Positions 1-64,000 of a stretch of 64,000 nt of DNA are shown in pieces. How positions within the stretch are numbered: the first letter of the stretch is position 1; each line of letters starts with the position of its first letter. A program made the translations under genes and the position numbers. The notes under the pieces are model-generated. The model ran no database searches. It saw only the letters and a list, made by a program, of their open reading frames with translations, and was not told the origin of the DNA. The stretch comes from Schmidtea nova (Eukaryota): contig CM097883.1 in assembly GCA_044892505.1 (NCBI GenBank), positions 163,928,001 to 163,992,000 on the forward strand, in the 5' to 3' direction.

Positions 1-1088
1 GAAAAATACATAAAGTTACTTTATATTGTTAAAAATTTGAAAATTCAAAATAAAACATGTGTGCATCACAAAATACGACAACTTTCAGAATTCTAATAAA
101 GCCATTTTGTAGACAATTAAATTTTATCTATACTTTATTACAATGAAAACTCAAAAAAGTTATTTTATTTAGGTGAAATATACAAATTTAATGACAAAAC
201 ACGTGTGCACAACAATATACACAACATTTTGAATTTTTTATTCAGCCATTTTGTAGACAATAAAATTCTGTCTATCTATTGTTTCACTAAAAACTCGATC
301 GGGCCGGTTTATCGACTCGAAAAAGGCGTTTGAAGTTTTGTAGTAGGAGGCTGTGTCCGGTCTGCCACCCTTCCCATGTGTGAACTCATATATTTTTTTT
401 ATTAAATTTAAAATAAAATTTCATATTTTTAAAAAATTAAAACAAAAAATTCATATAATTAAAACAAATATTCTAGTTATTTAAAACAAAAATTCACTTA
501 ATTTAAACAAAAATTCACTTAATTTAAACAAAAATTCACTTAATTTAAACAAAAATTCACTCAATTTTAAAATTATATGAAATTACGTAATTATATATGA
601 AATTACATAATTATCGGGTTTTATTAAGCACACTTGATTACGTAATGATTATGTAATTATGTGTGCTGTACAAAACCCCGAGCGATAACGTAATATACAC
701 ACATGGGGGGGGGGGGTAGTGGTTCAGACCTGACATAGCCTCCTACTACAAAACTTCAAACGCCTTTTTCGAGTCGATAAACCGGCCCGATCGAGTTTTT
801 AGTGAAACAATAGATAGACAGAATTTTATTGTCTACAAAATGGCTGAATAAAAAATTCAAAATGTTGTGTATATTGTTGTGCACACGTGTTTTGTCATTA
901 AATTTGTATATTTCACCTAAATAAAATAACTTTTTTGAGTTTTCATTGTAATAAAGTATAGATAAAATTTAATTGTCTACAAAATGGCTTTATTAGAATT
1001 CTGAAAGTTGTCGTATTTTGTGATGCACACATGTTTTATTTTGAATTTTCAAATTTTTAACAATATAAAGTAACTTTATGTATTTTTC
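1..1088. repeat. Large inverted repeat (fold-back): arm 1-340 is the reverse complement of 749-1088, around an imperfect inner hairpin 341-748
   Basis: Read base by base, 1-340 and 749-1088 appear to be identical reverse complements (mirror sum 1089). The inner arms 341-403 and ~697-748 are only imperfectly complementary. The left arm runs off the window. Confidence 0.95.
484..567. repeat. Four tandem 21-bp repeats (aaacaaaaattcacttaattt) in the loop of the terminal hairpin
   Basis: Units start at 484, 505, 526 and 547. Degenerate copies lie just upstream. Confidence 0.9.
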
Positions 1089-1800
1089 ATTGTAATAAAG
1101 TATAGGTAAAATTTAATTTCCTATAAAATGGCTTGATTAGAAAATTAGTTTGTTGGTGTGTTTGTAATGCACACGTGTTTTGTAATTAATTTTACATTTT
1201 TCATGTATATAAAATAACTTTTTTGAGTTTTCCTTGTAATATTATATGTGTAAAATTTAAATGTCTACAAAATGGCTTTATTAGAAATCTGAAAGTTGTC
1301 GTATTTTGTAATACACACGTGTTTTGTAATTAATTTTGCATTTTTTGTGTATATAAAATAAATTTATTGAGTTTTCATTGTAATAAAGTATAAGTAAAAT
1401 TTAATTTCCTATAAAATGGCTTGATTAGAAAATTAGTTTGTTGGTGTGTTTGTAATACACACGTGTTTTGTAATTAATTTTGCATTTTTCGTGTATATAA
1501 AATAAAATTATTGACTTTTCATTGTAATAAAGTATATGTAAAATTTAATTTCCTATAAAATGGCTTGATTCAAAATCTAAATGTTGTCGTTTTTCGTGTT
1601 ACACACGTGTTTTGTAATTAATTTTGTAAGTTTTAGTTATTTAAAATAACTTTAGTGAGTTTTCATTGTAATTACATATAGATAAAATTTAAATATCTAT
1701 AAAATGGCTTGATTCAAAATTAAGTATATTGATATGTTTGTGATGCACACGTGTTTTGTAATAAAATACTGGGATTTTTTCGACTATTTAGCATAGAATT
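820..1800. repeat. Subterminal tandem array, 7 units of 144 bp
   Basis: The anchor aaaatggct occurs at 837, 981, 1125, 1269, 1413, 1557 and 1701 (constant 144-bp period). Most units carry the palindrome ACACGTGT, and alternating subtypes are visible. Confidence 0.92.
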
Positions 1801-2160
1801 ATCGAATATTTATTGTAATCATGTGTAGATATAATTTAATTTTCTATCATATACTAATGAAAATTATAAAGGTTTTGTGTGTGTTATTGACAATTCTAAT
1901 GTATTTTATCAAAATTAATTAAAATATTTTTTATAACTGACGTAATTATTGAATTGTAATATAATTTAGACGTAATTTACTGAAATATTTAGTCTAATAT
2001 ATTTTAATCATATGACATGCATGCAATTCATTGAAATATTTTATAACTTTGATGTGTATTATAATTTGTTGAAATAACTTTTCTAGTTTTTTTAAAATAC
2101 TGCAACGTAATATATAATTAGTCATAATTCTCTATCTGATGATAATAATACCTTTACTGC

Positions 2161-2262
2161 CTCTTACTCGATTCTGATTGGCTAATAAGAATAAATTTCC
2201 TACCCCTTACTCGATTTTTATTGGTCAAAGGTTATGTGTGTGTAATAACTTTGATATATAAA
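2161..2262 (+). promoter_or_regulatory. Putative Pol II promoter of the PolB gene: two inverted CCAAT boxes plus a TATA box
   Basis: A duplicated cttactcgatt..attgg motif places ATTGG at 2177-2181 and 2220-2224. TATATAAA lies at 2255-2262, ~50 nt upstream of the ATG at 2312. Confidence 0.55.
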
Positions 2263-2311
2263 CAAACCTTTTTCATTCATTATTCACTTTAACAAATAAT
2301 AAACATTAAAA

Positions 2312-5300
2312 ATGAACATGATAACAAGTTTTATGAACGAAAACCCAAGTGGAAATGAAAATGGTAAATTTATTTTTTAATTTATTATCATTTAGTATTA
2401 ATTTAGGTAATATCAATAATTCAATTGGGAAATCGATGTTAGAAAATACAGAAGAAAATGGTACTTGATCATTAACTTAATAAATTATTTAACTTTTACT
2501 TTAGGGGATGTAAATATGACTGAACAAACTACCGTACAAGCTGAGATTGTTAATAACGAGAATATTGTGAATAATGGAGTTATACCTGATGTGGTATTGA
2601 ATGTTCAATGTAAGTATTGATTAATTTTAATTATATTTCGATAATTATTTTAATCAATTTAGTAAATAACTTTAGTAAAATATTTGTAAATATATATTTT
2701 TGGTAATATTTTGTAATAATTTAGATAATCTTTACTTTACGTAAACAGTTAATTTAAACAAATTTCTTAAATATTATTTTGTAATAAGTTTTATATTAAA
2801 TTTAAATTATTTTAATAATTATTATATTTCATATTTATTTTCTAATAATTCATATTTTTTATTAATTTATTTTAATGATTTTTTTGATAAATTTAAAGAT
2901 ATTTCATATTAAGGTAAATTTTATGCGAATTATTGTAAGTCGTCAAATCATAACGATTGCCACAAGTTAATGGAGCGATTCTATCGTATTATAAATAACC
3001 AAGTCACCTTCTATTTGTGTCCCACATGTAAGAGCGCCCAACATATAAATTACATTGATTTTTATTTCCAACATTATCTCCACTTAAATCAATTCTCATG
3101 TACTAAGAAAAGTCTTTTCGCATTAATTAATAAAAGTAAACGACGAAATGTTACTGTTTGTCCTAAACCATCTAAAATAAATGTAATATCTGATGATGAA
3201 GATGTCCATTTATCAAATGACGATGTTTTAGTTATTCCTAATTTACATGTTGTCCAATATGGCGGTTCTGTTGAACCTTTGGTTAAATATAATTTGAAAA
3301 AATCGCATGCCATTGTTAAAATGGATGTGGATTCTTTAAATTTAAATAAATTAATTATTCCTTCAGCTTTATTAAATAAATTTAATTCAGTTATTTCCAA
3401 AATGGGGTATGTAAAAGTTCAATTCTGCATTGATGTAGAATTTGAAAAGAATAAGCAATTTCAATCTTTTATAATATCAAATTCTGCAAAACCAATGAGT
3501 GATACCTTTTTAGATGAAGGTATTGCTCTATTAAATGAAAAAAATACTAAAGTCTGCGAAAATGGCAGCAATTGGTTAATTAATAAAATTAAAGAAATAA
3601 GCTTTAAACTTACAAAATATTCACAGATAAGTAGATTGAGCGGTAAAGGTTCTTGTTCAACTCCACCATCATTAAATGCAAAACGTTGCACTGTCAATGT
3701 TAAAAATACTGATAACTTGTGTTTTATATATAGCATCTTGGCTATTTTAAAATACGATGATGTAGATAGCAATCATCGAAATAGAAATAGAGCAACTAAT
3801 TATAATCCCTCAGACCTTGTGTTTGATTCTTCTGATCTTCCTATGAAATTATGTAATATACCCAAATTTGAAGCGAAAAACCCCGGGTTGGCAATAAATG
3901 TCCTTTCATATGACGAGTATGATCTAAATAATATTAATGAGGAAGAGGAAGTCATGAAACATCCATTTGTAGATATTATTCATAGGTCAAAGGTTTTAGG
4001 TGGCACTCCAATTAATTTGATTTTGTTAGAGGAAAATGACTCTTTTCATTATATTGCAGTTACCAACATTAACAGACTTCTAAATTGTGACACTCTTTCT
4101 GTTACTGATGTTCAAATAAGGTGCACGTGGTGCGAGCGTTGCTTGAATGGTTTTAGATTGACTGAAGCTTTTGAGAAACATCAGGCTTTATGCACAAAAA
4201 ACCAGTTAGGTACAACTTTGTATACTTTGCCTTCAGATAAGAACTTGGAATTTAAAGATTGGTCAAAAATTGTTACACCTCCTTTCGTTGTATATGCCGA
4301 TTTTGAGGCTGTTTTACCCAAGGACGATAAGTATTTTCAACGCCACTTGCCTATTTCTGCTGGCTTGTTGCTTATTAATAACTTTACTGGCGAAAAATCG
4401 TATAAAAGTTTTTATGGTCTTAACTGTGTAGAAGAGTTTTTGACTGAAATCAATGATATAGGAGAAAAAGTAGTTTTACCTTACTTTATAAATAATTCCA
4501 AAAAGAAAATGGAATATCTTTCTCCTGCGCAAATAAGATCATTTCGTAGTTCTATTATTTGTTATTTGTGTAATAAACCTTTGAAAAATCCGGTTAAAGA
4601 TCATGACCATTATACAGGTAAATACTTGGGTGCAGCTTGCTCTAAATGCAATTTTTCTCGGCAAATAAGATTCGTCATGCCTGTACTATTTCATAATTTA
4701 CGCGGATATGATTTACATCATATCCTCAAGTATGGTTTAAATAAATTCGATAAATGGGATATAAGTTGTATTCCTACTACAAGTGAAAAGTTTTTGACTT
4801 TATATGCAAGAGTCGATAGTTTGACTATTAAATTTATCGATTCTTGCCAATTTGTAAGCTGTAGCTTAAACGATGCTGTAAAGACTTTAACAGATTTTCC
4901 TCTTACTTCATCCGAATTTATAGGGACTATTATTACATCCAAAGGTATATTCCCATATAATTTTGCAACATCTTTAGAGGTTTTACAAAATACATACGAA
5001 TTGCCACCGATTTGGGAAGGAGTTAAAATCGACGAGTATGAAAAAGCTCAACAGATATGGGATGAATTTAATTGTGAAACATTGTTTGATTATATGATGT
5101 TATACCTGAAATTGGATGTTTTCTTACTTGCCGACTTTTTTCAGCAATTTAGGTCAAAATCCATTGCACATAACCGACTTGAGCCTCTTAATTTCTTGGG
5201 AATTCCAGGTATGTCATGGAATTCAGCTTTGATGACTTTGAAATCTCCTATCGAGTTGCTTCAAGATATGGAGATGTATAATTTTTTCGAAGGGGGGATC

Positions 5301-6680
5301 CGTGGTGGGTTAACATTTGTTAACAAACACCATGTAGTATCCTCCGACGACACTGAGCTTCTTTATATAGATATAAATAATTTATATGGGTGGGCTTTAA
5401 GCCAAAAACTACCTTATAAAGAATTTAAATGGGTAACTGATAGGGAAAAATTAAATAAAATAATTTATTACTGTGAATCTGCTGATTTAGAAGTATTAAC
5501 ATTTGGATTTACATTAGAAGTCGATTTAGAAATTCCTGATTCGATTCACGACAAGCTGGATGATTTGCCAGTTGCCGCTGAAAAGATGTGTCCACCTGGC
5601 TCAAAGGTTGAGAAGTTGATGCTTACGCATTATCCCAAGAAGAACTATGTTCTTCATTGGAGACTTCTCAAACTTTTTCTTTCTCTTGGAGTAAAAATAA
5701 CTCATGTCCATAGGGCAATTAAATTTAAACAAGCATGTATTTTTAAGGATTACATCGATACCAATACCAGACTTAGAGCAGAATCAAGTAATGCTCTCGG
5801 TAAAAATTATTATAAATTATTAAATAATAGTCTCTACGGTAAAACCGTAGAGAATCTTAAAAAGCGCATAAATTTAAGATTATGTAATTCGGCTTCTAGG
5901 CTGATTACATATACTTCTAAGCCAACTTTTAAAAGGACTTTCGAAATTGACGATGATTTAGTTGCAGTGTTGCTGAATCAGGAATCGGTGTGTTTGGATA
6001 GACCCAGCTACATTGGTCAAACTGTACTGGATCTATCTAAACTTAGGATGTACCAGCTGCAGTATGAAGAGTTACAAAAATATCGTAACGAATTCAACTG
6101 CGAAATCAACATCGTTGCTGGTGACACCGATTCGTTTTTTCTTGAGATTAGAAATTGTAAGCTTGATATTCTTTTACCGGCCATGATAAGAGATAACTTA
6201 CTTGACACTTCTAATTATGATCTGAATCACCCATTATATAGTAGGAACCTTGATTCTGTCATTGGCAAATTCAAAGACGAGAATAAAGGGCTTAAGTACG
6301 AGGAGTGGGTGTTTCTTAGACCTAAATGTTATAGTCTTTTAGGTGACGAGGAAACTAATAAAGCTAAGGGGGCAACATTGGCGGGTACCGACATAAAGCA
6401 TCAGTCGTACCTGGACTGTTTTAATAATAACCAAATATTTTCTGTTCCCCAAACGAGAATCACAAGTAAAAATCACCAACTTTTTACCATTAAAAATGAA
6501 AAGATTGCACTGACAAACGCAGATGATAAAAGGAAATGGGTGGCGAAAAATAAAAGCTTGGCATATGGCCATTATATGGAAGGTGACTTGGTTATATTTC
6601 AACATACCGATCCAAGAATCAATCCAGATCAACAATTCCAAGATCCACCTGGAGATATCCAAGATGAAAGTTTTATTTAA
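2312..6680 (+). CDS. polB: Protein-primed family B DNA polymerase (Polinton-type); predicted exons 2312-2363, 2407-2460, 2505-2609, 2914-6680
   Basis: The 1236-aa ORF 2970-6680 has Exo I YADFE, Exo II HNLRGYD, Exo III YLKLDV, KGIFPY, motif A YIDINNLYG, motif B KLLNNSLYGK, motif C GDTDS and RPKCY. An inserted EndoVII-like CYLC..DHDHYTG..CSKCN is present. Three GT-AG phase-1 introns join the upstream exons in frame. Polymerase identity is very secure; the splice model is ~0.7. Confidence 0.93.
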
Positions 6681-7180
6681 ATAAAATTTGTTGAAAAAAC
6701 TTTGTTTTCATTTATTTGGTTATATATTGTACAGATTAGTTTCAGTCTGTTTTTTATATTTTGGGTAACAATTTTTAGAAACAATGGTTATGTCATAATA
6801 ATGATAGTAATATTAGTAATAAAATAATAAATAATTAGTTTAATATTTATCGTATTTCACCATGTAATTTTTTTTGTTGTGCAGAATTGTCTCATTTTGT
6901 TATATGCTTATAATATTTTGATGAGTGCTTTCATTGAACGTTTATCATTGAAGTTGTAGAAAAATATTAAGAACAATAATAAATTATATTAACAAAAAAG
7001 TAAATTAATAATATTAAAAAAAAAAATAAATAACTAATTAAAATAAATTAATAAAAAAAATTATTTAAATAAAAAAAAAAGAAATAATTTAATAATAAAA
7101 TAAATAATAAAATTCCAAACATTTAAACAAAACACACTTTAAAAATGGCGCCAAAAAAACGCGCGATAACTCATAGTGAC

Positions 7181-7205
7181 GCAGACCTGACACATCCTCC
7201 TACTA
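7181..7205 (-). repeat. Right terminal inverted repeat of the PolB element
   Basis: gcagacctgacacatcctcctacta is complementary to 341-365. Homology with copy 3 stops at this motif. Confidence 0.8.
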
Positions 7206-9189
7206 TCTTATGTAAAAATAATTATAAACAAATCTATCATCAATTTTATTTAAAACTAAATAAATAAAATTATTTAAAATGAAGTTATGATAAAAAGAGT
7301 TTTCCTCTTTATTTCAAAAAGTAATGATTTATCTTACATGTCTGACAATACGCTGTGCGTGATAAACGCTTGCTAGTTTGTCAGTGATATGTTCTGGCAC
7401 CGAGATCGTTTTCTATTGCAAAATCCTCATTAAAGACAATATTCTTGCATAATAATTTATTGATTAGTTATTTTATTTTTAGTAACTGAGAATTTTCTAC
7501 TTGGAAATAAAATTTTAGATGGCTTTTTCTTTTGAACTTTGTCAAGTAATTTCTTTTTTATTGTATTATTATTTGGCTCTCCCAGCCACTACTCCGACTG
7601 TCCTAGCATCACTGTCATTAGCAAATGTGAAAGAACTTGCAGAAGTAGCAGATTGAATCGATTAAGTAACACAAACCAATAACCTAATCGTCAACGCGAT
7701 TTGCAAAAGAAAACGGAAACTACTAACAAAATTCTAATCGTAAAAGCCATCGAGAAATTATCTCAGAAATTGGGAAATTTACTATTAGATAGATACAGAA
7801 AAAACATTCACGAAATAGCTCCAACCGTTCCAGGTATTGGGAGAAAACTGAATTTTGTTTAAATAACGCGTTAATACAGCATGTAGGGAGCGCGCACGAC
7901 GTAAACTTAAAATAGGATTGAGAAAAACACCAAGTAAAACACAGTAATAACAAAGCACACAAATAATTAATTAAAACACGTTTACGAATTAAAATGAACA
8001 AAAGCGTATCAAATGTACACGTGAAAAACACACATAACATAAAACATCAATTATGTAATAAAATTAAAAAGTAGGAAAAATTAACATAATTTTAGAAGGA
8101 AAATTTCGATTTTTAGCGTAAAATTTCAAAAAATATAAAAGAAAATTGTTTTGGTTAAAAATTTTAGTACATTAAACTAAATTAGAGAAAAACTTTAATT
8201 CAAAAGTAAAATTTTTGATTAAAAATAAATTATTTAAAGTTTTATTAAAATTTTATGCAAAAATAATAATTCAATTTTGCTTAAAATTATTAAAATTAAT
8301 TTTGAAAGAATCGAAAATTTCTTCTAGAACAATTTGTTTTAATACATCAACGAAAATAGCAGTTTGAAACAAATATATATACCGCCATCAAAATGGAAAT
8401 CATCAGAGAGAACTTGCTTAAAAACCTTTGGAAATTTTCTGCGAAAGTGAAATTTTCGAAGAGTTTTTACACTGCAAACTGGTAAAAACTGATAAAGATG
8501 AACCCCTCGAAAGATTTCCAGAAACACTCAATCAGTTTCCGACTTACAGAAGTTTTGCAAAAAATCCAAGACACGTATTCGTGATTTCAGACGAACATAA
8601 TCCAATTTATTTCTAACCGCATTCGAACCAAGCGAAACCCATACGAGTAATTATGTAAGGATCTTGAAATTTTCTGTTATACAGGCTAGCGAATCATGCC
8701 TTCGTTACACTGCCGTAGGTTTTTTTGATTTATTTTCAATTTATTTTGAATATTGGTAATGTGTTATGATATGGTTAAATATGTATTTATTACTTTTTGG
8801 AAAATTATAATTTTTAATTATAATTTTTCAATTTTTAAATTTTGACTAATTTTTAATCCCGAAACTTTCCTAATATTTATCTTTAATAAGGCAGCGCAAG
8901 ATTTTTTTTAATCTTTTTGCGTGACTAAGGAACGAGATTTTTAAATAACTTGAATATCAAGTATATAAAGTATTTTATATTTCACTGAACCTACGTTCTA
9001 CTTTTTTAAAATGAACTATAAACAGAATAAATCAAAACAATAGGTCTGGAAGAAATTACAAGTAAATTATTGATAATCGAACTTAGTAATTTTTATTAAA
9101 TATACGATAGTAACACAAATAAAATTAAAAGAATTTTAAATACAGATTTCATATTATCATAATTATTAGTTATAGATTTTAATATAACT

Positions 9190-11589: not shown

Positions 11590-14255
11590 CCAAAAGTTTT
11601 TAAGCATCTTTGTGTTGAAATCATCCACAGGTCAAAGGTTGTTGGGGGTACTTTTATCAACTTGATTTTATTTGAAAGTGGTGACCATTATCATTATGTT
11701 GCAGTCACAGATTTTGAGACAACAAATCTCTTTCGATTGCTCGCGTACAAAGTATATGGTGTCATCGATGTTGAATGGATTTCGAAAACAGGAAGCATTC
11801 GATTGTCATCAAGAGTTGTGTGCTAAAAACCAATTAGGCACAACTCTTTATACTCTGCTTAGAAATAAAAATTTTACTAATTGGGAAAAAACAATTACTC
11901 CACCTTTTGTAATTTATGCCAATTTTGAGGCAATCTTAACTACTGACGATATTTATTTTCAAAGACATGTTCCCATTTCATCAGGACTTTTATTTGTAAA
12001 TAACTTTACAGGTTGAAAAATATACAAGAGTTTCTTAGGTCTTGATTGCGTTACTAATTTTCTTTCAGAAGTTAATCACTTGTCGGAATCAATTGTTTAT
12101 CCCTTTTTTAAAAATAATTATAAAAAACCTCTTTTCATAACTGTGGCTCATCAGCAAGCTTTTTCTTCTGCAACCCTCTGTTACCTTTGTAAAATGACTT
12201 TAGTAAGACCGGTTAGGGATCACGACCATTACACTGGTGAATATTTGGGGCTGCTTGTAATTCATGTAATCAAGCCCGTCGAATTTACAAGTTATTGCCT
12301 GTCATTTTTCACAATTTAAAGGGTTATGATCTTCATCATATCCTTAAATATGGATTATCGAACTTAAAAAAAGGGAAAATATCTGTGATTCCAGTTACTA
12401 GTGAGAAATTCTTGACTTTATCTGCTCGAGTTGGTGCTTTAACTATTAAATTCATCGATTCATTAGTTTCTTAATTCTAGTTTAAATGACACTGTTAAGA
12501 CTCTTACTTGTTTACCTTTGACTTGCTCAGAATTCACTGGGACTATAGTTGATTGTTAAAGGATTTTTCCTTATAATTTTGCTACATCTTAAGAAATTCT
12601 TAACAACACTTATGCGTTGCTACCAATCTGTGAAGGCGTTACTCAATCCGAATATGACAAGGCATTGGTGATTTGGTTGGAACCATAGTGTCAAACCTTT
12701 TGTGGTTATACGATGGTTTACCTTATACTTGATGTATTTCTTCTTGCCGATTTCTTTCACGAGTTTAGGGCTAAATTGATTGCTCATAATCGACTTGAGC
12801 CATTGATTCTTTGGGGATTTCAAGTATGTTGGAGTCTTCTGCGCGTATTAACTTGGATAAACCTATTGAGTTGCTCCAGAATATGGAGATTTATAATTTC
12901 TTTGAAGGATTGATCCGTGGTGGTTTCACATTTGTCAACAAGCACCATGTAGTGTCCTTTGAAAGGATAGAATTGCTTTACATTGACATTAATAATTTAT
13001 ACGGGTGGGTTTTAAGCCAAAAATTACATGATGGGAAATTTGAATGGATTACAGATCAAAATCAATTAAATAAAAAAAATAAATTTAATCGATGCTGATT
13101 TAACTATATTGACTTATGGTGTTACTTTTGAAGTGGATCTCGAAATTAATTCTGAAATCCACGATAAATTAAATGATTTCCCCATGGCAGCAGAAAAAAT
13201 ATGTGCTTCGTGTTCAAAAGCTGAGAACTTGATGCTTACGCATTATTCCAAATCGAACTATGTTTTTCATTTGAGGCTTCTCAAGATTTATCTTTCATTA
13301 GGGGTTAAAGTCACTTAAGTACATGGGGCTGTTCTATATAGACACAAACACCCAACTTCGGACCGCTTCTTCAACGGCTCTTGACAAGAATTATTACAAA
13401 CTACCTAATAATAGTCTTTATGGTAAAACTGTCGAAAACCTTAAGAAAAGATTAAATTTAAGGTTGTGTAATTCAGCATCAAAGCTGATTACGTATACTT
13501 CAAAACCCACTTTACAAAAAACATAAAATTGACAATGACTTAATATCTGTACTTCTTAATAAAGACTCTGTGTGCTTAGATAGACCCAGTTACATTGAGC
13601 AAATCGTACTGGATCTATCTACACTTAGAATGTATATACTCTAATATAAAGAATTGCAACAATATCCCAATGAATTCAACTGTGAGATTATTATAGTTGC
13701 CGGTGATACAGACTCTTTCTTTCTTGAGGTTAAAAATTGTAAGTTGGATACTCTTTTGTCTGCCATGGTTATAGATATGTTTTTGGATACCTCAAATTAT
13801 GACCCGGAACATCCTTTGTATTCTAGAAACCTTGATTTCGTCATTGGAAAATCAGATGAAAATAAAGGTAAGAAATATAAGAAATGGGTTTTTCTTAGAC
13901 CAAAGTGTTATAGTTTGTTTGATAAAAAGATTCTATTAAAGCGAAGGGAATAACATTGAAGGGCACTGACTTAAAACATCAGTCTTATCTGGATTGTTAT
14001 CATAATAATTCTATAGTTTCCATTGAGCAGTCTCGATTTGTAAGTAAAAATCATCAAATCTTTAGTAATAAGTCTACAAAAGTTTCCTTGACTAATCTTG
14101 ATGACAAAAGACTTTGGATAGGTAAAAATCAGAGTCTTACTTATGGTCACTATAGGGGTATAGATGTGGTTATGGGGGTTAATAATGTGGAAGAAGAAAT
14201 CAATAATGCCGACGATTGCGATGATGTTGTTTTTCTTCATATTTTTAATAAATAA
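11590..14255 (+). pseudogene. polB: Second PolB copy: 5'-truncated, frameshifted, divergent subfamily
   Basis: Fragments are colinear with copy 1 from about aa 330: VEIIHRSKVVGG, YANFE, DHDHYTG, YIDINNLYG, KLPNNSLYGK, AGDTDS, RPKCY. Many stops and frameshifts. Confidence 0.92.
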
Positions 14256-14836: not shown

Positions 14837-15070
14837 TGTAAAGAATAAGAATGACTTTTGAAGTTCTAAAACTTTATTTATGAAATCTTGGTACTATTAA
14901 TAGTACCCGGTGTGCCGATACCAGCACAATCAGCAAAGCTTCTTGGGAAATAATAAGCAATGATGTCATCTGAGGACCCAGTCAATCAAGCATAATCAAT
15001 CACACATGCAGGCATGACACAATATATAATAGGGGTTAGGGAAATCAAAAATACCATTATAATTACATCA
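14837..15070 (-). repeat. Gypsy 3' LTR (234 bp)
   Basis: Direct repeat of 19438-19672, preceded on the minus strand by a polypurine tract. Confidence 0.95.
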
Positions 15071-15266
15071 AATCCCCCTCGTTTTAAATGACTTAAGCCA
15101 TTCCATACCTGTTATCTTGCTTGTTTCTGAGATCTTCCTTGACGAGTACCAATTCACCGACTCCGAAAGATCTATGTATTCGATTTTCCAGATTATAATT
15201 ATTTATACGGTTCAATGATTCAATATTCAATGCTATTTCATGTTTTTTTTGTTCTTTAGCATTAAT

Positions 15267-17955
15267 TTATGGACCATTAGTAAAACGCTCTTTGCAAAAT
15301 GTTCTTCCATAAATTACTTCAACAGAACTAACTTTTATACTTGACTGCATTGTTGAATTCATTGCAAATTCTATATGAGGAAATGCTTCTTCCCATGTCT
15401 TAAACTGTTTCTCTTCCAAACAGCAGGAAATCCAGTCTCTTAGCATTCTAAATTGCCTTTCAATTTGTCCATTAGATTGATGATGATAAGGACTTGAATA
15501 AACAATCTTCAAGTGATACTTTACTGCCATATTTTTAAAAGCTTGGGATTCGAAACATTTTCCTTTATCAACATGAATTTCCTTTGGTGGTCCAAACTTC
15601 AATATCCACGAACTTTCCAGATTATCAATTAATGTCTTTTCTTCTTGTGTTCTTACAGCTTTTAATAATATATATTTACTAAAATAATCTATTATAGCCA
15701 TCATATATCTTTGGCCAGATGGTGTCATTTTAAAAGGGCCACAAAAATCAATATATATTTTTTCAAATGGTTCATGCGCAATTAGTTTTTCATTAACTTC
15801 TTTTGTTTTACCAGTGAATGTTTTACGTTTCTGGCAAATTTTACAAGTTGTGATAATTCTCTTAATACTTTTGTCCATTTCTTGGAAATTATAATAATTC
15901 TTTATGTAGCTTGTCGTTTTGTTGATTCCTGCATGACACAATTCTTAATAGATTTCTAGTATAAAATCGTTTTTCAAATATGAAGGAATATATATTTTAT
16001 TATTATGAGTCATAATAATTCCATTATCCACATAATAATCTTCAGTTTTTGCCGTTCTGTATGTTTTCTTTTATTTCCATTATTTCTTCAGAATTACTTT
16101 GCCATTTAAATATTTGATCTTCTATCGACATTCCTAAAATTTTAGTTTTAATTCTTTCTGCTTTAGCATCAATATGATTCATCTGACATTGTGTGCAATT
16201 TCCAATATTCAGTCGTGATAGTGCATCCGCATTATTGTGTTTCTCACCTTTGCGATATTCTAATTTCATGTCCAAACTACTTAAAAAATTTATCCAATTT
16301 TGAAACTGAGCGGTAATTGGTTTTTTTGTAGTTAACATAAATGTGATTGCCTTATGATCAGTTCTTAAAATAATTTTTTTTCCGTACAGATAATGTTTAA
16401 AATGCTGTGTAAAATGGAAAACAGATAATAATTCCTTTCTTGTTATACAGTACCCAATTTCATGTTTATTCATACTTTTTGAACCATATGCGATTATCTT
16501 TTCTTCATTATCGTCACCTCTTTGTGATAAAACAGCACCAATACAATCAAAACTAGCATCGGTGTCTAAAATGAACGTTTTATTAAAATCCGGATGACAT
16601 AGTAATGGTGCACTGATCAAACTATGTTTTTACTCGTCAAAAGCTTTTTCACATTGTGATGTCCAAATAATACTTTTGCTTTTACCTCCAATTAAAGATT
16701 CCAATGACCTAGCTATTTTTGAGTAATTTTGAATAAATTTCCTAAAGTAATTACATAATCCTAAAAAGCTCCTAAGATGTTTCACACAATTAGGCTGCTT
16801 TACATTTTTAATTGTTTCAATCTTAGACTCATGTGTTTTAATACCTTTTTCATTAATTATATGTCCAAGAAACTTTAATTCAGATACTAGGAACTTGCAT
16901 TTCTCAGGGTTAAATTTTAGTCCAGATTTCCTAATTCTAAGGAAAAGCTTATTTATTCTTTTGCTTTGTTCTTCAATAGTTTTCGAAAAGATCAGTATGT
17001 CATCTAAATAGACTAATGCTTCATTCCACATCATATCTCCAACTATTAATGTCATAAGTTTTTGAAACGTTGATGATGCGGCAGCTATTCCAAAAGGCAT
17101 CCTATTAAAGCAAAATTGGCCCTGTCTTTTAGAAAATGTTGTTTTCAATTTACTCTCTTCATCCAATTCAACTTGATAATAAGCCTTTCTTAAGTCGATC
17201 GATGAAAAATATTTGGCCCCATACAAAGAATCTAGCATTTCATCAACATTGGGAATCGGAAACGCTGGTCTTACTGTATTTGAATTTAAAATTCTAAAAT
17301 CCAAACATATTCGAATTTCAGAAGTTCCCTTTTTTGGCACACATACTATTGGTGAATTCCAAGGTGATTCACATTTCTCTATAATTTTATTTTCTTCTAG
17401 GTTTTTAAAAATTTCCTCTAGTTTTTCCTCATAGTGCATTGGTTGTCGCCGTGGCTTAATTGGTATTGGATTGCAGTTAGTTTCTATTCTGTGCTTTAAA
17501 ATATCTGTTTTGCCTATATCCCATTTATTACACATAAAAATATCTGAGAATTCAATAATTATTTCATATATCGGATTGCATCTTTCAATTTTCAATATTT
17601 CATTAATATATTTATTTTTATTATTTAATTTTAAATTATAACCAAATTTTGTTTGCAAACTGAGGACATTTTCATTACAAAATTCAACTAATTTAATATT
17701 TAAAGAATTCAATATATCTATTCCTATAATTACTTCTGGGTATAATTCCTCTGCAACGAAAAATTCTCCAGTTATTTCTTTATTGTTGAACTCTAACCTT
17801 AAAGAAACTTTCCCTAAAATCCCTAACATGCTACCGTTGGCACAAGATATCTTTCTATTTCCTTCATTAAAATATTTTAAATTCAGTTTTTCAGCAATCA
17901 TTTTAGATAAAATACTTATCTTTGCTCCTGTGTCAAATAATGAATTAAAAGTCAC
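15267..17955 (-). pseudogene. pol: Gypsy pol (protease-RT-RNase H-integrase), disrupted
   Basis: ORFs 16630-17955 (PR/RT), 16042-16620 (RH, same frame after one stop) and 15267-15941 (integrase: IDFCGP, DKGKCF, SNGQIER). Confidence 0.93.
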
Positions 17956-19437
17956 ATTATTCGATTTAACATTATTAAATGGTCTACCATCTACCTTACA
18001 ATATCATATATCCTATATATCTTTAATAACATTTACACTCAGTAATTTTAATTTTTTATTAAATATATTTAAAATAAATTCTTTTTTATAACAATCACTC
18101 ACAAATATACAGTCATTCTCATTTTGTTCATTATTACAATTATTAATTAAATAAAAATCATAATCAGATTTTTGATTGGGGAAAAATCAACATTAACATT
18201 ATCAAACAAACAATCAACCAAACAATCATTACATTCAACATTTAGGGTCCTCAAAAATTTATCATTGCTTACATGTGATTTATCGTTCCTAACATATCCC
18301 CTCTGCTCGGAGCTTTGGCATTTCTCGATATCTCTGACTGTACATCATAGTCTCTCGATTCGTCATCATCTACTGCAGCCACGCGATCTCCATTGTTTCG
18401 ATCATTTTCTTGATTAAAACTTCGATTGTATCGATTGAAATTTCCATTGTTTTGATTCGAAGTTCATTGAAATCTCATCTCGTAGTGATGTTGTTTATGA
18501 AAACATTGAAAACTTAAATGACCTGCTTTTCCACAACACGAACAACGAATATTTGGGCATTCTCGACGAATATGACCAATTTCACGGCATGCGTAACATT
18601 GCACTTTTGAATATTGATCTGAACTTCGATTTTGATAAGTGTTTCCATTTTGAGGTCTTCCACTGAAATTTCTACTGAAATTCCTTTGATAATCTGATCG
18701 TCCTTGAAATTGATTTCTTTGTAATTTTGAAAATTCATTTTTATCAATTTGATTTCACTGATTTCCATAACTATTTCTTTTTTCATTAGAATTGTATCGA
18801 CCGTTTTTCACAATTGACGCTTAAGAGGCATTTCCAACGGCTGAAACTTGTTGTATCTTTGATTTATCTTCATCCAATTTCTGTAAAATTCTTTTAATAT
18901 ATTTATTTGCCGTTGTACCTTTCTGTACTGACTCTCCATCATTTCTGAAGTCTTCTTTCGATAATTTTACTTTCAGAAAATCTTCCGTCATTTCATATCT
19001 TTTTATTTCATGTTTTTCTTCTTCATTATCAAGACAATGCTTGAGGAAGAATGTTGTCAAATTTGACATTGTTAGCTTGTGCTTCAGAATTTTCTGAACG
19101 CCTTTCTAAATTTTGCTGATGTATGTTTCTGCATCATCTTCTCTTTTTCGATAATTTAGCAAATTTTCCAAATCTTTAGCTAAATCCTGGTTTACTTCGA
19201 ACGCTAGTCTAAGCCTTTTCACATAATCTTCTTCATCTGGAATCTTGTCATATTTGTTGCGGCAATTTTCGTCCAAATAAACTCGAACAAATACCTTTCT
19301 TTGACTATTGTCTAACTGAATAATTGAAAAATATGATTCAATCTTCTCATTAAATTCTTCCAAATCGTCTCCAATTGAATAAATTTTCAGCTGTGGGAGA
19401 ATCCGTAATAATTTCTGAGTTGAAAGCGTGGTCGCCA

Positions 19438-19672
19438 TGTAAAGAATAAGAATGACTTTTGAAGTTCTAAAACTTTATTTAAGAAATCTTGGTACTATTT
19501 ATAGTACCCGGTGTGCCAACACCAGCACAATCAGCAAAGCTTCTTGGGAAAATAATAAACAATGATGTCATCTGAGGATCCAGTCAGTCAAGCATAATCA
19601 ATCACACATGCAGGCATGACACAATATATAATAGGGGTTAGGGAAATCAAATATCCCATTATAATTACATCA
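19438..19672 (-). repeat. Gypsy 5' LTR (235 bp)
   Basis: Direct repeat of 14837-15070, immediately followed by the PBS on the minus strand. Confidence 0.95.
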
Positions 19673-57814: not shown

Positions 57815-57995
57815 ATGACTATAGATCAAATTTTTTTTATAAACAATAATACAATATTTCGGCACAGCCTTTATCAAGTGTGTACACACTTGATAAAGGC
57901 TGTGCCGAAATATTGTGTTATTGTTTATAAAAAAAATTTGATCTATAGTCATTATGAGAATTATTGATAATAATAATAAAAAAAGATCAAAGGTG
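57815..57995. repeat. Best-preserved hammerhead-like palindrome, centre gtgtgtacacac (no loop)
   Basis: Near-perfect reverse-complement arms centred at ~57883 (left arm cut by Ns after ~68 bp), bounded by N-runs. Confidence 0.9.
57886..57918 (+). ncRNA. Putative minimal type I hammerhead ribozyme (U3-A8 variant)
   Basis: ACAC (stem I), UUGAUAA (core 3-9), extra A, GGC ugu GCC (stem II), GAA, AUAU (palindromic helix III), U (cleavage nucleotide), GUGU (stem I). Activity is untested. Confidence 0.6.
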
Positions 57996-58469
57996 ANNNN
58001 NNNNNNNNNNNNNNNNNNNNNNNNNNNNNNNNNNNNNNNNNNNNNNNNNNNNNNNNNNNNNNNNNNNNNNNNNNNNNNNNNNNNNNNNNNNNNNNNNNNN
58101 NNNNNNNNNNNNNNNNNNNNNNNNNNNNNNNNNNNNNNNNNNNNNNNNNNNNNNNNNNNNNNNNNNNNNNNNNNNNNNNNNNNNNNNNNNNNNNNNNNNN
58201 NNNNNNNNNNNNNNNNNNNNNNNNNNNNNNNNNNNNNNNNNNNNNNNNNNNNNNNNNNNNNNNNNNNNNNNNNNNNNNNNNNNNNNNNNNNNNNNNNNNN
58301 NNNNNNNNNNNNNNNNNNNNNNNNNNNNNNNNNNNNNNNNNNNNNNNNNNNNNNNNNNNNNNNNNNNNNNNNNNNNNNNNNNNNNNNNNNNNNNNNNNTA
58401 TAGGAATTTGAAAATAAAACTTGATTGGAAAACAATTAGAAATTTACTAGAGAAATAACAAAGAGAAAC

Positions 58470-60216
58470 TGGTCGCGCCCGCTCTTAAAATATTTTAAAA
58501 TTAATAAAATAATAATTAAAATAATTAATCGGGTGCTTGATCGCTATGAGAGATTGTGGGGCGAGCCTGGAAGCCGTTAGACAGTCATATCGAAATCTAT
58601 ATAAAGCTTATATGATGCAAGTATTGATTTAACTCAATCTGAAGACGAAAATGTTCACGTGAAAAAGAAACGATCTGAATCATCACATGAAACTTATAAT
58701 CATAATCTAATTCAAATAAACAATGATATCTTTAAAGTTTTCTACTCCACCGAAGATCTTTGTGAACAATATCTCTCAATGCAACGGCAAATAAATCGCT
58801 AAGTCATTAAAACCCAATACTCGATAAATTGCCCAAAATGTCACATTCAATTTCTAAATTGTAACTACCTTTGGATAGTTCGGGAATTCTGCGTGGAGTT
58901 CAGCAGGTGGCGATTTCTCGGCGTGCGCACGCGGACGCGAGGGTCTTGGAATCGCTGTTTAAGTTGGAATTATGCGTGTAATTGTCTGTGTGCGCGTCTG
59001 TGATATGTGGTGATCAGATATTTGGGCTTTTGGTGTCGTTCTATGGGAGCTTGCTACATATGGGTTATCTCCTTACCCTGGAATAGAATTACATGATGTT
59101 TATCATATCTTAGAAAAAGGCTATCGAATGGATCGTCCTGAAGGATGTCCAGAAATAGTATATGGGATAATGCTCCAATGTTGGCAATGGGATCCATTAT
59201 TGAGACCATCATTTGCTCAATTGTACTCAAAACTATATTATATTTGTTTCTCTCAGAATGTCGATTGGTCATATCAATTCAACAACTCATTAAGCATGGA
59301 TAAAAGCCAATTTAAAACATCGAAGGAATCTTAATGAAAACGCGTTTCATCGCGTCTGTGTGCGCGGTGGTGTTATATCGATTCGTGTTTTCTTAGCATG
59401 CGCACACAGACGCGAGTAGTTCCAGGTTGGCTAAGAATAATTAATCCATGAATTGGAGTTTTTGGACTTTTAATTTTGCGAATGTATTTGTAATTTTTTT
59501 GGAGATTTGGAATTATGAATAAAAATCAAGATGTTTTAAATTTGTTTAATATGCATTACTTATGAATTCTTAAATTATTGAAATGTCATATCGCTCTCGA
59601 TTTAAAAATGTTGCCGATACTATGGAAGAAGAAGCTCGCAAATTACAAGCAAATGAAGAACCTGCAATCGTTTATCATCAGTTTATTGAAACTTTTGAAG
59701 AGCCACCGAAAGTTAATAAGACATGGGTTAAAGGTGCTGGTAAACTCTATCAGCTGTTAATGAAAAAGGTGGATTTGGAACTGATTAAGCATTTGATTGG
59801 CGAGGTAATGGTTTGGTGCTTGGGACATGCTGATTCAGCTGAGGATGTGTTGGATATCATTTTCACACAGATTGATAACACTGTTGGATATGCTACCGAT
59901 AAATCTGTTGAGAATTCCAATGCTGCTGGTCTCAATCAGATTGTTGTGTTCCTTTTCCTCGTTTCGGATATCCTTCACAATTCCTGCACTAGAGTGCGAA
60001 ACACGTCTTTTGATCGGAAATACATCGAAAACAGATTGCCTCAAATGATGGTATTTCTGAATCAATCTTGTCTAGCGATTGCTAGTGATATGTTTACCAA
60101 TCCCGATAGATATCCTTTGTCGGATAGTGAGGAGAATTTCAATTTGTCAATGATTAAATCTCGCGTTCTCAGTCCAAAAAATGAGGAAAGCAATCGGAGC
60201 TGGATGCGCCGATCCA
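58470..60216 (+). repeat. Inferred 5' LTR (~1747 bp, TG...CA)
   Basis: Starts TGGTCGCGC and ends GCGCCGATCCA (imperfect inverted termini) one base before the PBS. Only the first 598 bp can be verified against the 3' copy in this window. Confidence 0.65.
59014..59334 (+). pseudogene. ABL: Captured, uninterrupted Abl-like tyrosine kinase C-lobe fragment (subdomains IX-XI)
   Basis: [69 protein letters not shown] closely parallels c-Abl [37 protein letters not shown]..RPSFA. It is preceded by an in-frame TGA, and its start is repeated at ~63947-64000. Confidence 0.88.
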
Positions 60217-63200
60217 TTGGTAGCAGAGCGTGGTTCCCTTCGGGGGGCCACGCACGGCGGGTAAGCTTCTCGATTGCTTATAGCGGTCACAGCGCCGCAT
60301 GTTTTTCTAAAAATATTAAAAACTTAAAATTAATAATGAATTTAATGGGGGGATTTAGCGCTGTAATGGGCCCCAGCGACCATCCCCTTCCCTTAAGCTC
60401 AGTTGGGTCTGAGAACGAAAAGGATGGGTCACCTGAAAATACGTATTTGAAACAGGTTATTAAGCTTGATGGTAGCCGTAGTGATAAATCAAGCATGCCC
60501 TTTAGTGAGAAACTTAGGGATACTTATGATAATCCCACAAAACTTGTATGTGGTGAAAAGCAAACTTTAACTAAAGATTTTGATAAAACAAAAAATAAAA
60601 AAAGATCATTTGATGAATCAAATAGACAAAGGGATAAAATTGTGTCACCTGCTTATGAAGCAATATGTATAGGAAAAGATAACTCGAGATTTAAAGGTGT
60701 AGAGGTTAGTAGGTGGACCGGTTATATCAGGGGAGATTTTATATTGAATACCAACCGGGAAATGTTGCAACAAAATAGATTTTTGAAAGTATTCAGAAAA
60801 GAGTTAGGGGGAAAAGGTTTAGAACTTTTTGAGCGAACAATAGAATACAAAGTTAATTATAAAAAGTTTTATGTTCAAGTTGCTAAAAATATTAAAGTGG
60901 AAATGCATGAAGACAGTGTAAATGAAAATAAAATAGCGGAATGTTTGTGTTTTTATTCAATGCCAAGTGGTGATGCAAGTACAGGTTTAAAAGAGTATAG
61001 TCCGCGAATGAAAGAAAATAAAACGGAGTCAACTTTGCATTTGGGACCACGATTGAGAGGTGGTATACAGATGTTTGTGAGGACTTTATCAGGGAAAACT
61101 ATTACCCTGGAAGTTGAATCAAGTGACACAATCGAGAAAGTAAAAGCGAGAATACAAGACAAAGAAGGCATTCCACCTGACCAGCAAAAGTTGATCTTCG
61201 CCGGTAAACAACTGGAAGACGGACGAACATTATGTTATTATAATATGCAAGGGGAATCTACCTTGCATTTGGGGTTGAGACTACGAGGAGGTATGAAAAC
61301 CCAAGACAAACAGTTGCAGCTAAAGAATGGGATCGAGAAGCTCTGCGTTCAGAAGACGCATCTAACCAGACTATTCAGGAGAGCCTCAGAATACCTGTCG
61401 GAAGCGGATCGCGTGCAACGTCAAGAGGAATACGAAGAAGACTTTGATGAAGTGCTGGAGGACTGGAGCAGGCTGAAGAGCTTAGCAGAAGAGTTGGGAG
61501 ACCTGGAAGCTGTCAAACGCTTTGATCAGGAATTAGATGCTATTGAAGAGCAAAATGAACATTTAGGGAGATTAGAGAGAGACAAAAGCATAGTCGACAA
61601 AGCGAATTGCTACCCAGGAAAAAGAATGTTGGACAAAAGCATTGAAAGCCAAGAGAGAGACGTACCGTCAGAAAGAACAATTTCAGAAGTGAACAAGGTA
61701 AAAAATAGTTTGAAAGAGAAAAATGGGAATTTGATAAATGGAGAGAAATTTGAGGAAGTGCAGGAGGACTGGAGCAAGCTAAAGAGCTTAGCAGAAGAGT
61801 TGGGGGACCTGGAAGCTGCCAGACATTTTGAGCAAGAATTAGATGCTATTGAAAAGCAAAATGAACATTTAGTGAGGAAAATGGTAGAAACAAATCTTAA
61901 CGAAGGTTCACGGGTAGCCGCTATCCGAGGAATGTCAGGTGGAGGTTCAGTTGAAAGGATATTCAAGATGGACGAGAGCGGAGTCGACAAAGCAAATCGC
62001 TATCCAGAAAAAAGAAGGATGGACAAAAGCATTGAAAGCCAAGAGATAGAAGTATCGTCAGAAAGAACAATATCAGAATTGAACAAAGAAATAAATAGTT
62101 TGAAAGAGAAAAATGGGAATTTGATAAATGAAAAACTAAATGATAAAAATGAATTCGAAAATAGAAAAAATAAAATGGAATTGGAATTAGAAAAAGAAAG
62201 AAGCAGGACAATGTCGTTAAAATTGAGAGAAAAGGAGGTGGCCGATTTAGAGACGAAAATGAAGTCTTGCGAGGTTAATTATGAGAATTTATCGAAAAGC
62301 AAGAATGAAATTCAAAGTAAATTGGAATCTTTATTTGAAGAATATTCAAAATTATTTGACGAGCTGGCATTAGTTAAAACTCACAAGGGTGAGCTGGAAA
62401 CGAATTTGAGGAATTATGAAATCGAAACAAAACGCTCTCTTGCTGACAAGTCAGGTTTAATAACACAGCTTCAATTAAAAATAGAAGTTCTTCAAAAGAA
62501 AATAGAAACGATTGAATTAGATCGTAAAAAGGAAATTAATGAATCAGAAGTAAAATTAGCGAATTTGGCTGAAACTGTAGAAACGTTGTCCGCTGAGATA
62601 GAAAATGTAAATGATATTAATGTTAAATTGGCAGCTGTAAATCGAGAACTAGAAATAAAAATTGAACGAAATGAAATCGATTTAAATGAGCTTACTGCGA
62701 AAGGAAGGCATTTAGATGTGGAAATGAAAGAAAAGGAAAATGATTACCTAGAAAAACTTCGAGAGGCTAATGACGAAATCGTTTCTCAGCAAACCTTGGT
62801 GAAGGATTTGACGGAATTAAATGGTAATTTAATAATTAAACTAAATGACAGTCTGGGAATGATTGAAGATATTAAATTAAACTTAATGCCTTTAATGATA
62901 GAAAAGGATTTCTTGAAAATGGGACTTAGTACTAAAAAGGAGTTGGTTAAAGAAGTCTCAAGGAAATTGGAAACAAATATTGAAGAGGAAATTTATATTT
63001 CGAACAATATAATGAATATTGACGAAAAATTGGTCGAATCCAAAAGAGTTGAAGAATTAATTGAGAGCCAGTTGATTAAATTAGAAGTTAATGTAAAGGA
63101 AAATAGAACGAAATGGTGTATGCTGCATAGTTCGGTTGTGGGGATTGATGGGGAAATTACAAAGGTTTGGATATTGTTTTACACAGTTGCAAAATTCATA

Positions 63201-63374
63201 AATAAAGGCATCATGCAAGAGGCATGGATGCAAAGAATTGATTGGAAGGAAATACTTCCTCCAGAAATGATAAAGAAGATAAAGGTGGCGAGTCTTCCAC
63301 ATTCAGAATTAAAGGCGGACTCGTGGAGAGTTATTATTGGTCATGGAGAAAGAGAGAAGTGGATGAAGTGTTGA
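59583..63374 (+). CDS. 1263-aa chimeric ORF: U2SURP N-terminal and CID fragments, HSP90 middle-domain fragment, polyubiquitin piece, duplicated helical segment, long coiled coil, possible BEL/Pao pol-like tail
   Basis: [33 protein letters not shown] (U2SURP CID). [40 protein letters not shown] (HSP90, 60723-61022). Full ubiquitin at 61065-61292 bounded by RLRGG on both sides. No stop codons. Confidence 0.85.
60218..60235 (+). other. Primer-binding site complementary to the 3' end of tRNA-iMet
   Basis: The first 11 nt TGGTAGCAGAG are the complement of the metazoan initiator tRNA end CUCUGCUACCA. Positioned directly after ..CCA-T. Confidence 0.8.
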
Positions 63375-63389
63375 TGTTGACAGAATGTC

Positions 63390-64000
63390 AAAGGGGGGAG
63401 AATGGTCGCGCCCGCTCTTAAAATATTTTAAAATTAATAAAATAATAATTAAAATAATTAATCGGGTGCTTGATCGCTATGAGAGATTGTGGGGCGAGCC
63501 TGGAAGCCGTTAGACAGTCATATCGAAATCTATATAAAGCTTATATGATGCAAGTATTGATTTAACTCAATCTGAAGACGAAAATGATCACGTGAAAAAG
63601 AAACGATCTGAATCATCACATGAAACTTATAATCATAATCTAATTCAAATAAACAATGATATCTTTAAAGTTTTCTACTCCACCGAAGATCTTTGTGAAC
63701 AATATCTCTCAATGCAACGGCAAATAAATCGCTAAGTCATTAAAACCCAATACTCGATAAATTGCCCAAAATGTCACATTCAATTTCTAAATTGTAACTA
63801 CCTTTGGATAGTTCGGGAATTCTGCGTGGAGTTCAGCAGGTGGCGATTTCTCGGCGTGCGCACGCGGACGCGAGGGTCTTGGAATCGCTGTTTAAGTTGG
63901 AATTATGCGTGTAATTGTCTGTGTGCGCGTCTGTGATATGTGGTGATCAGATATTTGGGCTTTTGGTGTCGTTCTATGGGAGCTTGCTACATATGGGTTA
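63390..64000 (+). repeat. Polypurine tract (63390-63402) and partial 3' LTR (63403-64000)
   Basis: The purine run ends immediately before the TG at which identity with 58470 begins. Confidence 0.88.

Follow-up and report, generated by a model that had tools for sequence, protein, structure and literature searches.

Animal Polintons or Mavericks (eupolintoviruses, adintoviruses) encode a pPolB, have AG..CT termini and are flanked by 6-bp target duplications, as set out in PMC8097293 and PMC3014272, and the element analysed here is alike in each of these respects. According to PMC8097293, no introns were seen in intact vertebrate Mavericks, and excerpts of 10.1101/2022.07.12.499685 describe a nematode Maverick whose core genes are intronless, with introns in cargo genes only. 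Unlike the polymerases of these described elements, the polymerase considered here has predicted leader introns, three to five of them depending on the family. Among viruses, the adenovirus E2B messages for the related replication proteins, terminal protein and polymerase, are spliced, and a small exon upstream contributes a few residues at the N-terminus. Adenoviruses, unlike the present element, stay unintegrated and make their terminal protein and polymerase as two proteins. E2B is described in PMC13027316, the available part of which does not confirm the detail of the small upstream exon.

Two further systems invite comparison. Dinoflagellate polinton-like elements contain spliceosomal introns as introner insertions (PMC12166617, in part); introners are recent intron-generating transposon insertions, whereas the families compared here, at 60-69% identity, retain a common intron position although their intron sequences are unrelated. 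Adeno-associated virus produces snap-back subgenomes that are self-complementary, carry one parental arm from either end and depend on a helper (PMC8235507, in part). Among titles and the first lines of abstracts, we found neither a conserved spliced pPolB leader nor a two-polymerase palindromic Polinton; supplements and Repbase-type entries may hold one.

The window, by which we mean the whole 64,000-nucleotide stretch of Schmidtea nova DNA that was analysed, carries the element at its left end, save for the 6.1 kb of the left arm that lie upstream. We refer to the window element as family A, to the other Polinton families of this genome as B, D, E and G, and to a set of polymerase-less palindromes as H. 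The features discussed below are as follows.

1..341, minus strand: innermost part of the left arm, mirrored at 748-1088; a further 6.1 kb of this arm, with a second polymerase gene (minus strand), lies upstream of the window
342..747, no strand: palindrome centre, a unique spacer of about 340 nt between inward-facing terminus-like motifs at 342-375 and 714-747
822..1762, plus strand: repeat array, 6.5 copies of a 144-bp unit, of differing length between element copies
2142..2311, plus strand: predicted RNA polymerase II promoter with a 43-bp duplication, two inverted CCAAT boxes and an A-rich start context; putative function
2312..2363, plus strand: leader exon 1, 52 nt, with the predicted start codon; equal in length in families B and H
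2364..2406, plus strand: intron 1, 43 nt, GTAAAT..TTTAG, phase 1
2407..2460, plus strand: leader exon 2, 54 nt; the family H version has 66 nt, an in-frame difference of 12 nt
2461..2504, plus strand: intron 2, 44 nt, GTACTT..TTTAG, phase 1
2505..2609, plus strand: leader exon 3, 105 nt; its final base is base 1 of a conserved Cys codon
2610..2913, plus strand: intron 3, 304 nt, GTAAGT..TTAAG, phase 1, splitting the conserved Cys codon
2914..6680, plus strand: exon 4 (pPolB body), with linker, putative terminal-protein-like and OTU-protease-like parts, exonuclease with an endonuclease VII-like insert, and polymerase motifs
2914..3110, plus strand: start of exon 4, a conserved Cys/His domain some 65 residues long, seen in alignment A2 and in a model of an intronless relative; predicted zinc binding
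6680..6685, plus strand: AATAAA, predicted poly(A) signal overlapping the stop codon
7160..7204, plus strand: right outer terminus, ending ..CCTACT
7205..7210, plus strand: 6-bp target-site duplication ATCTTA, with its left-end match at L031:3378-3383

A preliminary description of this DNA had proposed that three introns precede the annotated polymerase frame, and the exons, GT..AG introns, phase-1 junctions and addition of about 89 residues that it claimed are all exact on re-reading the sequence. The frame of exon 4 is closed by a TAA at 2910-2912 and open from 2914 through the ATG at 2970; the predicted extension is 211 + 56 nt, or 89 codons, and the full spliced product would have 1325 residues. 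Introns and exons differ in composition (9-18% GC and 48-58% T in introns; 26-33% GC in exons). Against the model stand a weak donor in intron 2 (GTACTT) and an AAG acceptor in intron 3. Upstream, inverted CCAAT (ATTGG) boxes lie at 2177 and 2220 and a TATA-like site at 2255-2262, and boxes resembling these also stand upstream of the leaders in families B, E and G. Two points had been overlooked: joining exons 3 and 4 would complete a conserved Cys/His domain, and the gene forms one arm of a larger palindrome. Sequencing runs of unknown kind on the window leader (four) and the family G leader (two) gave contigs that cross the introns as DNA would and are thus uninformative on splicing; the joints listed for the window leader (15 of 28 shown) include none of GT..AG type at the predicted sites, which is equally uninformative given that the runs are DNA-like.

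Conservation of splice sites and phase in other copies had been named as a way of checking the model, and the last junction is indeed common to families A, B, D, E and G, whose exon-4 proteins are 96% (G), 69% (D), 68% (B) and 60% (E) identical to that of A. In all five, the long polymerase frame begins AG/G(T or C) and the preceding exon ends T/GT, such that the junction spells a Cys, which intronless metagenomic relatives encode directly just after the start codon. Intron 3 occupies the same position in B, D, E and G, with unrelated sequences of 690 to over 1000 nt. Across loci of this genome, AG/G(C or T) precedes the conserved N-terminal motif in 190 of 193 matches, which are redundant and overlapping and are not independent copies; in 186 of these 193 redundant matches an in-frame stop lies 1-23 codons upstream, with no ATG between. 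As a sequence pattern, the junction exceeds chance. A degraded further copy, L298, retains the acceptor alone.

The intronless comparison rests on four metagenome contigs (L132, L133, L134 and L136) that bear just two sample prefixes and are therefore not independent; in each the protein starts 1-4 residues before the Cys, with no intron. The spliced spacing, Cys-x6-Cys, equals that of three of the five intronless rows of alignment A2, the other two having x5 and x4. In L138, another relative from a metagenome, an Asn/Glu-rich first exon is followed by a phase-1 intron of its own, 44 nt long and at a different place. In a quick tree, one branch separated the six intron-bearing polymerases from the four intronless ones (SH-aLRT 99-100), with 12 of its 25 rows of unknown intron status and seven of those closer than the intronless group. 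The proposal of a spliced N-terminus on a Polinton-type pPolB, with host-type signals, thus draws strong comparative support across families, and we consider it highly probable that the polymerase message is spliced as modelled.

One might suppose that intron 3 alone matters: a short exon would provide both the start and the Cys, and introns 1 and 2 would be retained or used variably, or translation would begin in a later leader exon. Of the junctions, only the last is linked to a conserved residue, in family D the apparent start lies in the last leader exon, and leader exon 3 of the window has its own in-frame ATG at 2516, all of which would suit this reading. Against it, families A, B, E, G and H all have short introns (43-56 nt) in phase 1 between in-frame exons, and retention of intron 1 brings an in-frame stop. 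We regard it as improbable.

The leader introns keep the frame with great regularity. In families A, B, E and G (B and E counted from one copy each, G from three of four complete copies fetched), every one of the 14 leader introns is in phase 1 and each of the 10 internal exons has a length divisible by three, even though the leader sequences are unrelated; the upstream intron of family D does not fit phase 1. Exon 3 of family G measures 216, 246 and 327 nt in the three copies walked, and family E has five leader exons, two of which have a common repeated block. Among 21 distinct family A copies, drawn from 60 loci, the GT and AG dinucleotides and the ATG are unchanged, and indels number 15 events in introns and none in exons 1-3, a count to be read with the caveat that AT-rich introns gain indels easily and that some of the 15 may be one event aligned twice.

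The peptide itself appears to be free to vary. The preliminary description had taken the symmetric, Asn/Glu-rich micro-exons as a sign of adaptation to host splicing, but their peptide is not what is conserved: family G, with a polymerase 96% identical in protein and 95-97% identical in DNA, has an unrelated, Met/Pro/Ala-rich leader. Among near copies, exons 1-3 show 7 synonymous changes, 19 non-synonymous changes and 1 stop (27 scored; two junction codons excluded), and the leaders of A and H differ by 1-2 synonymous against 9-10 non-synonymous codons. By these substitution counts, within A copies and between A and H, no purifying selection is visible on the leader peptide. These patterns suggest that selection acts on the leader being spliced and in frame, not on the peptide it encodes. 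The accompanying suggestion that the exons could be skipped stands in part: the frame would be kept, but the T that opens the Cys codon comes from exon 3 alone, so that skipping this exon would turn the Cys into Gly, and exon 2 alone could probably be skipped harmlessly.

Beyond the junction lies the Cys/His domain, with invariant C, H, C, C and H in alignment A2. Nineteen of its codons are upstream of the ATG at 2970, and an ORF begun there would miss four conserved Cys/His residues. This bears on a second alternative, that translation starts at ATG 2970, with the upstream exons forming an untranslated leader or a separate small gene whose introns shape only the 5' end. The Met at that position is invariant in 9 of 9 rows of A2, the database proteins P0001 and P0002 are called from about the same place, the leader peptide is unconstrained, and family H retains the leader with no polymerase behind it. 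Yet the Cys, His and Cys before that Met are also invariant, the intronless relatives begin 19-25 codons earlier, and the unrelated leaders of the several families remain stop-free and in multiples of three. We think such a start very unlikely, and take initiation at 2312 as the working model.

The pattern of Cys and His residues suggests that the N-terminal domain binds zinc. A structure model of the domain from intronless L133, made with nine alignment rows, has a mean pLDDT of 85.5. Fold searches returned no clear match (best structural Z 2.6), which is not proof of a new fold, and neither did a protein atlas (best 0.82) or the sequences of solved structures; a Pfam search gave a weak ZNF451-type match (E 0.02). 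A profile search found four proteins among 1389 candidates, and those checked were all near the alignment rows. The domain is also found within a separate ORF that precedes a polymerase gene and, in another relative, as a tandem pair (L133:61-735; L142:190-900).

As to the polymerase, exonuclease and polymerase motifs were identified in the window ORF, which also has Cys and His motifs (residues 249-252 and 359-362) that may correspond to terminal-protein and OTU-like domains ahead of the exonuclease. The ORF is 56% identical to P0001, which itself matches DNA_pol_B_2 at 2.7e-32; the window protein gave no match of its own to Pfam DNA_pol_B_2. Domain names (TP, vOTU) follow 10.1101/2024.03.18.585575, in whose available passages on these domains neither 'intron' nor 'zinc' appears.

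The gene belongs to a palindrome of 13,321 bp with two head-to-head polymerase genes. Over 6457 nt its arms differ by one substitution and one inserted base. The entire 6.5-kb arms are the terminal inverted repeats, and their ends read 5'-AG..CT-3'. Unlike autonomous Polintons, the element consists of these arms with two polymerase genes and has no integrase or capsid; in the window at 1-7204, which the left arm mirrors, we found no gene for integrase, packaging ATPase, protease, or major or minor capsid protein, and apart from the polymerase no ORF exceeds 91 codons. The arrangement is recurrent: 112 of the best 150 matches to the N-terminal region form 56 head-to-head pairs, a lower bound, with no tail-to-tail pair among them. 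It is extremely improbable that fold-back reads, known from long-read data, produced the palindrome during assembly, or that it stems from two independent back-to-back insertions: near-identical arms would fit an artefact, but a single, perfect, locus-specific 6-bp duplication surrounds the whole 13-kb unit at 16 of 20 family A loci (the other four have no end in the stretch fetched), the left and right flanks are unlike, and the arms of a pair differ by 0-4 substitutions in 3600 nt in 7 of 13 pairs, the other six having been missed by the anchor and left out.

The inner motifs at 342-375 and 714-747 match the true ends of complete family G elements, and the motifs had 104 matches. Eight elements with such centre-motif ends were fetched: four are complete Polintons (family G) and four are polymerase-less palindromes (family H), and 6-bp target duplications are found at all eight loci. 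The family H palindromes (L329/L330, L335/L336, L339/L340, L343/L344) measure 12-14 kb, with family-G ends and 6-bp duplications; three of the four carry an A-type leader facing inward, and one element has WD40 fragments and Bcl-2-like ones (the latter a weak match, E 0.015) that apparently contain introns. Polymerase-arm palindromes also occur occasionally in families E and B, two of those in E with target duplications. At the outer ends of A, the first 9 nt equal those of G, and in one subfamily 10 nt equal those of B; either family could therefore supply the integrase. Several terminal details were noted on their own account. Positions 10-28 of the terminal motifs (342-375, 714-747, 7160-7204) vary mosaically between copies and usually match within a copy; in copy L065 an inner-type motif serves as the outer end; and at L059/L060 a single family A arm, its centre cut, adjoins family B structural genes. 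We set aside the idea of a 'flip-flop' of the centre, as its orientation is undefinable with identical arms.

The complete families are well equipped. A retroviral-like (rve) integrase is present in B, D, E and G, and the sister families also carry an A32-like ATPase, an adenain-type protease and a double-jelly-roll-like capsid protein (a weak match, E 0.0019). Complete families further contain a TATA-binding-protein-like gene (L281:1501-2010 and L331:2978-3454; PF00352, E 1e-14 to 2e-16; also L132:11333-11806), and a gene of this kind is named in a figure legend of PMC8502044. The long leader intron of family D contains an antisense, apparently spliced ORF with no Pfam match (L291:9215-9490, minus strand; L238, L244, L255). 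Families E and B (L281 against L059/L215) have structural modules that are 95-100% identical, polymerases that are 54-57% identical and different ends, which by sequence comparison points to module exchange.

We put at roughly 85% the overall explanation that this is a spliced pPolB gene forming one arm of a fold-back-derived palindrome that uses a helper integrase. On this model, a host-type promoter would drive an RNA polymerase II transcript from which the three introns are removed, with translation from 2312. Splicing would add a variable leader of 70 residues and complete the first Cys of the predicted zinc-binding domain, and the leader would be a tolerated, exchangeable cassette. The introns probably aid expression or export, or evade silencing of intron-poor foreign messages; targeting of such messages has been described in nematodes (PMC11414722, in part). 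During protein-primed strand displacement, the displaced single strand would fold back on itself, the element's own polymerase would copy the folded strand by protein priming at the outer ends, which are identical, yielding a palindrome with two origins, and an integrase from a complete Polinton family would insert it.

Most likely the palindrome derives, through fold-back, from a complete Polinton family present in this genome. Family A mixes a G-type polymerase, an H-type leader and outer ends of its own, and its origin would need recombination besides one fold-back, because the centre has family-G termini and the leader matches H. Like a snap-back genome, the element is self-complementary and made from one parental arm, and, by analogy with adeno-associated virus, polymerase-arm palindromes (A, E, B) and polymerase-less palindromes (H) both occur. 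The resemblance is one of analogy, with no sequence relationship. The present palindromes differ in being 12-14 kb long, having a protein-primed polymerase, being integrated with target duplications and having multiplied as a heritable family; copies are known here in integrated form only. A wider proposal seems to us evenly balanced, namely that a Polinton lineage became domesticated to splicing, an intron gained in the first zinc-ligand codon turning the N-terminus into a swappable phase-1 exon cassette that passes between families through recombination in the long intron and grows by exon duplication, and that integrated snap-back palindromes, some polymerase-only and others polymerase-less with cargo, persist as heritable defective-interfering satellites dependent on the complete Polintons from which this lineage spawns them.

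The remainder of the window holds other repeats. Two degraded polymerase copies with no leader region lie at 11594-14157 (plus strand) and 45591-48613 (minus strand), 68% and 86% identical in DNA. An LTR retrotransposon occupies 14837-19672 (minus strand), with reverse transcriptase, RNase H and integrase pieces and repeats 95% identical. In the region 58465-63697, direct repeats that are 99% identical enclose an ORF of 1263 codons (59583-63374) with coiled-coil repeats and stretches of HSP90 and ubiquitin; the layout resembles that of an LTR element that has picked up pieces of host sequence. A family of short repeats with hairpin ends is represented at 32546-32716, 37438-38100, 52878-52944 and 57821-57996, and a piece of it also lies inside the long intron of the family D copy L238.

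Because Polinton core genes have been described as intronless, ORF-based annotation truncates these polymerases, hiding a conserved N-terminal Cys/His domain for which the libraries searched gave no clear match. If the splice is required, a virus-like element would depend on the host's nucleus and spliceosome to replicate, a point relevant to the question of a viral versus a transposon lifestyle. The palindromic polymerase-only family also points to a fold-back intermediate in Polinton replication, a step that has been proposed previously, and as this host has numerous very young copies, such an intermediate could be sought directly.
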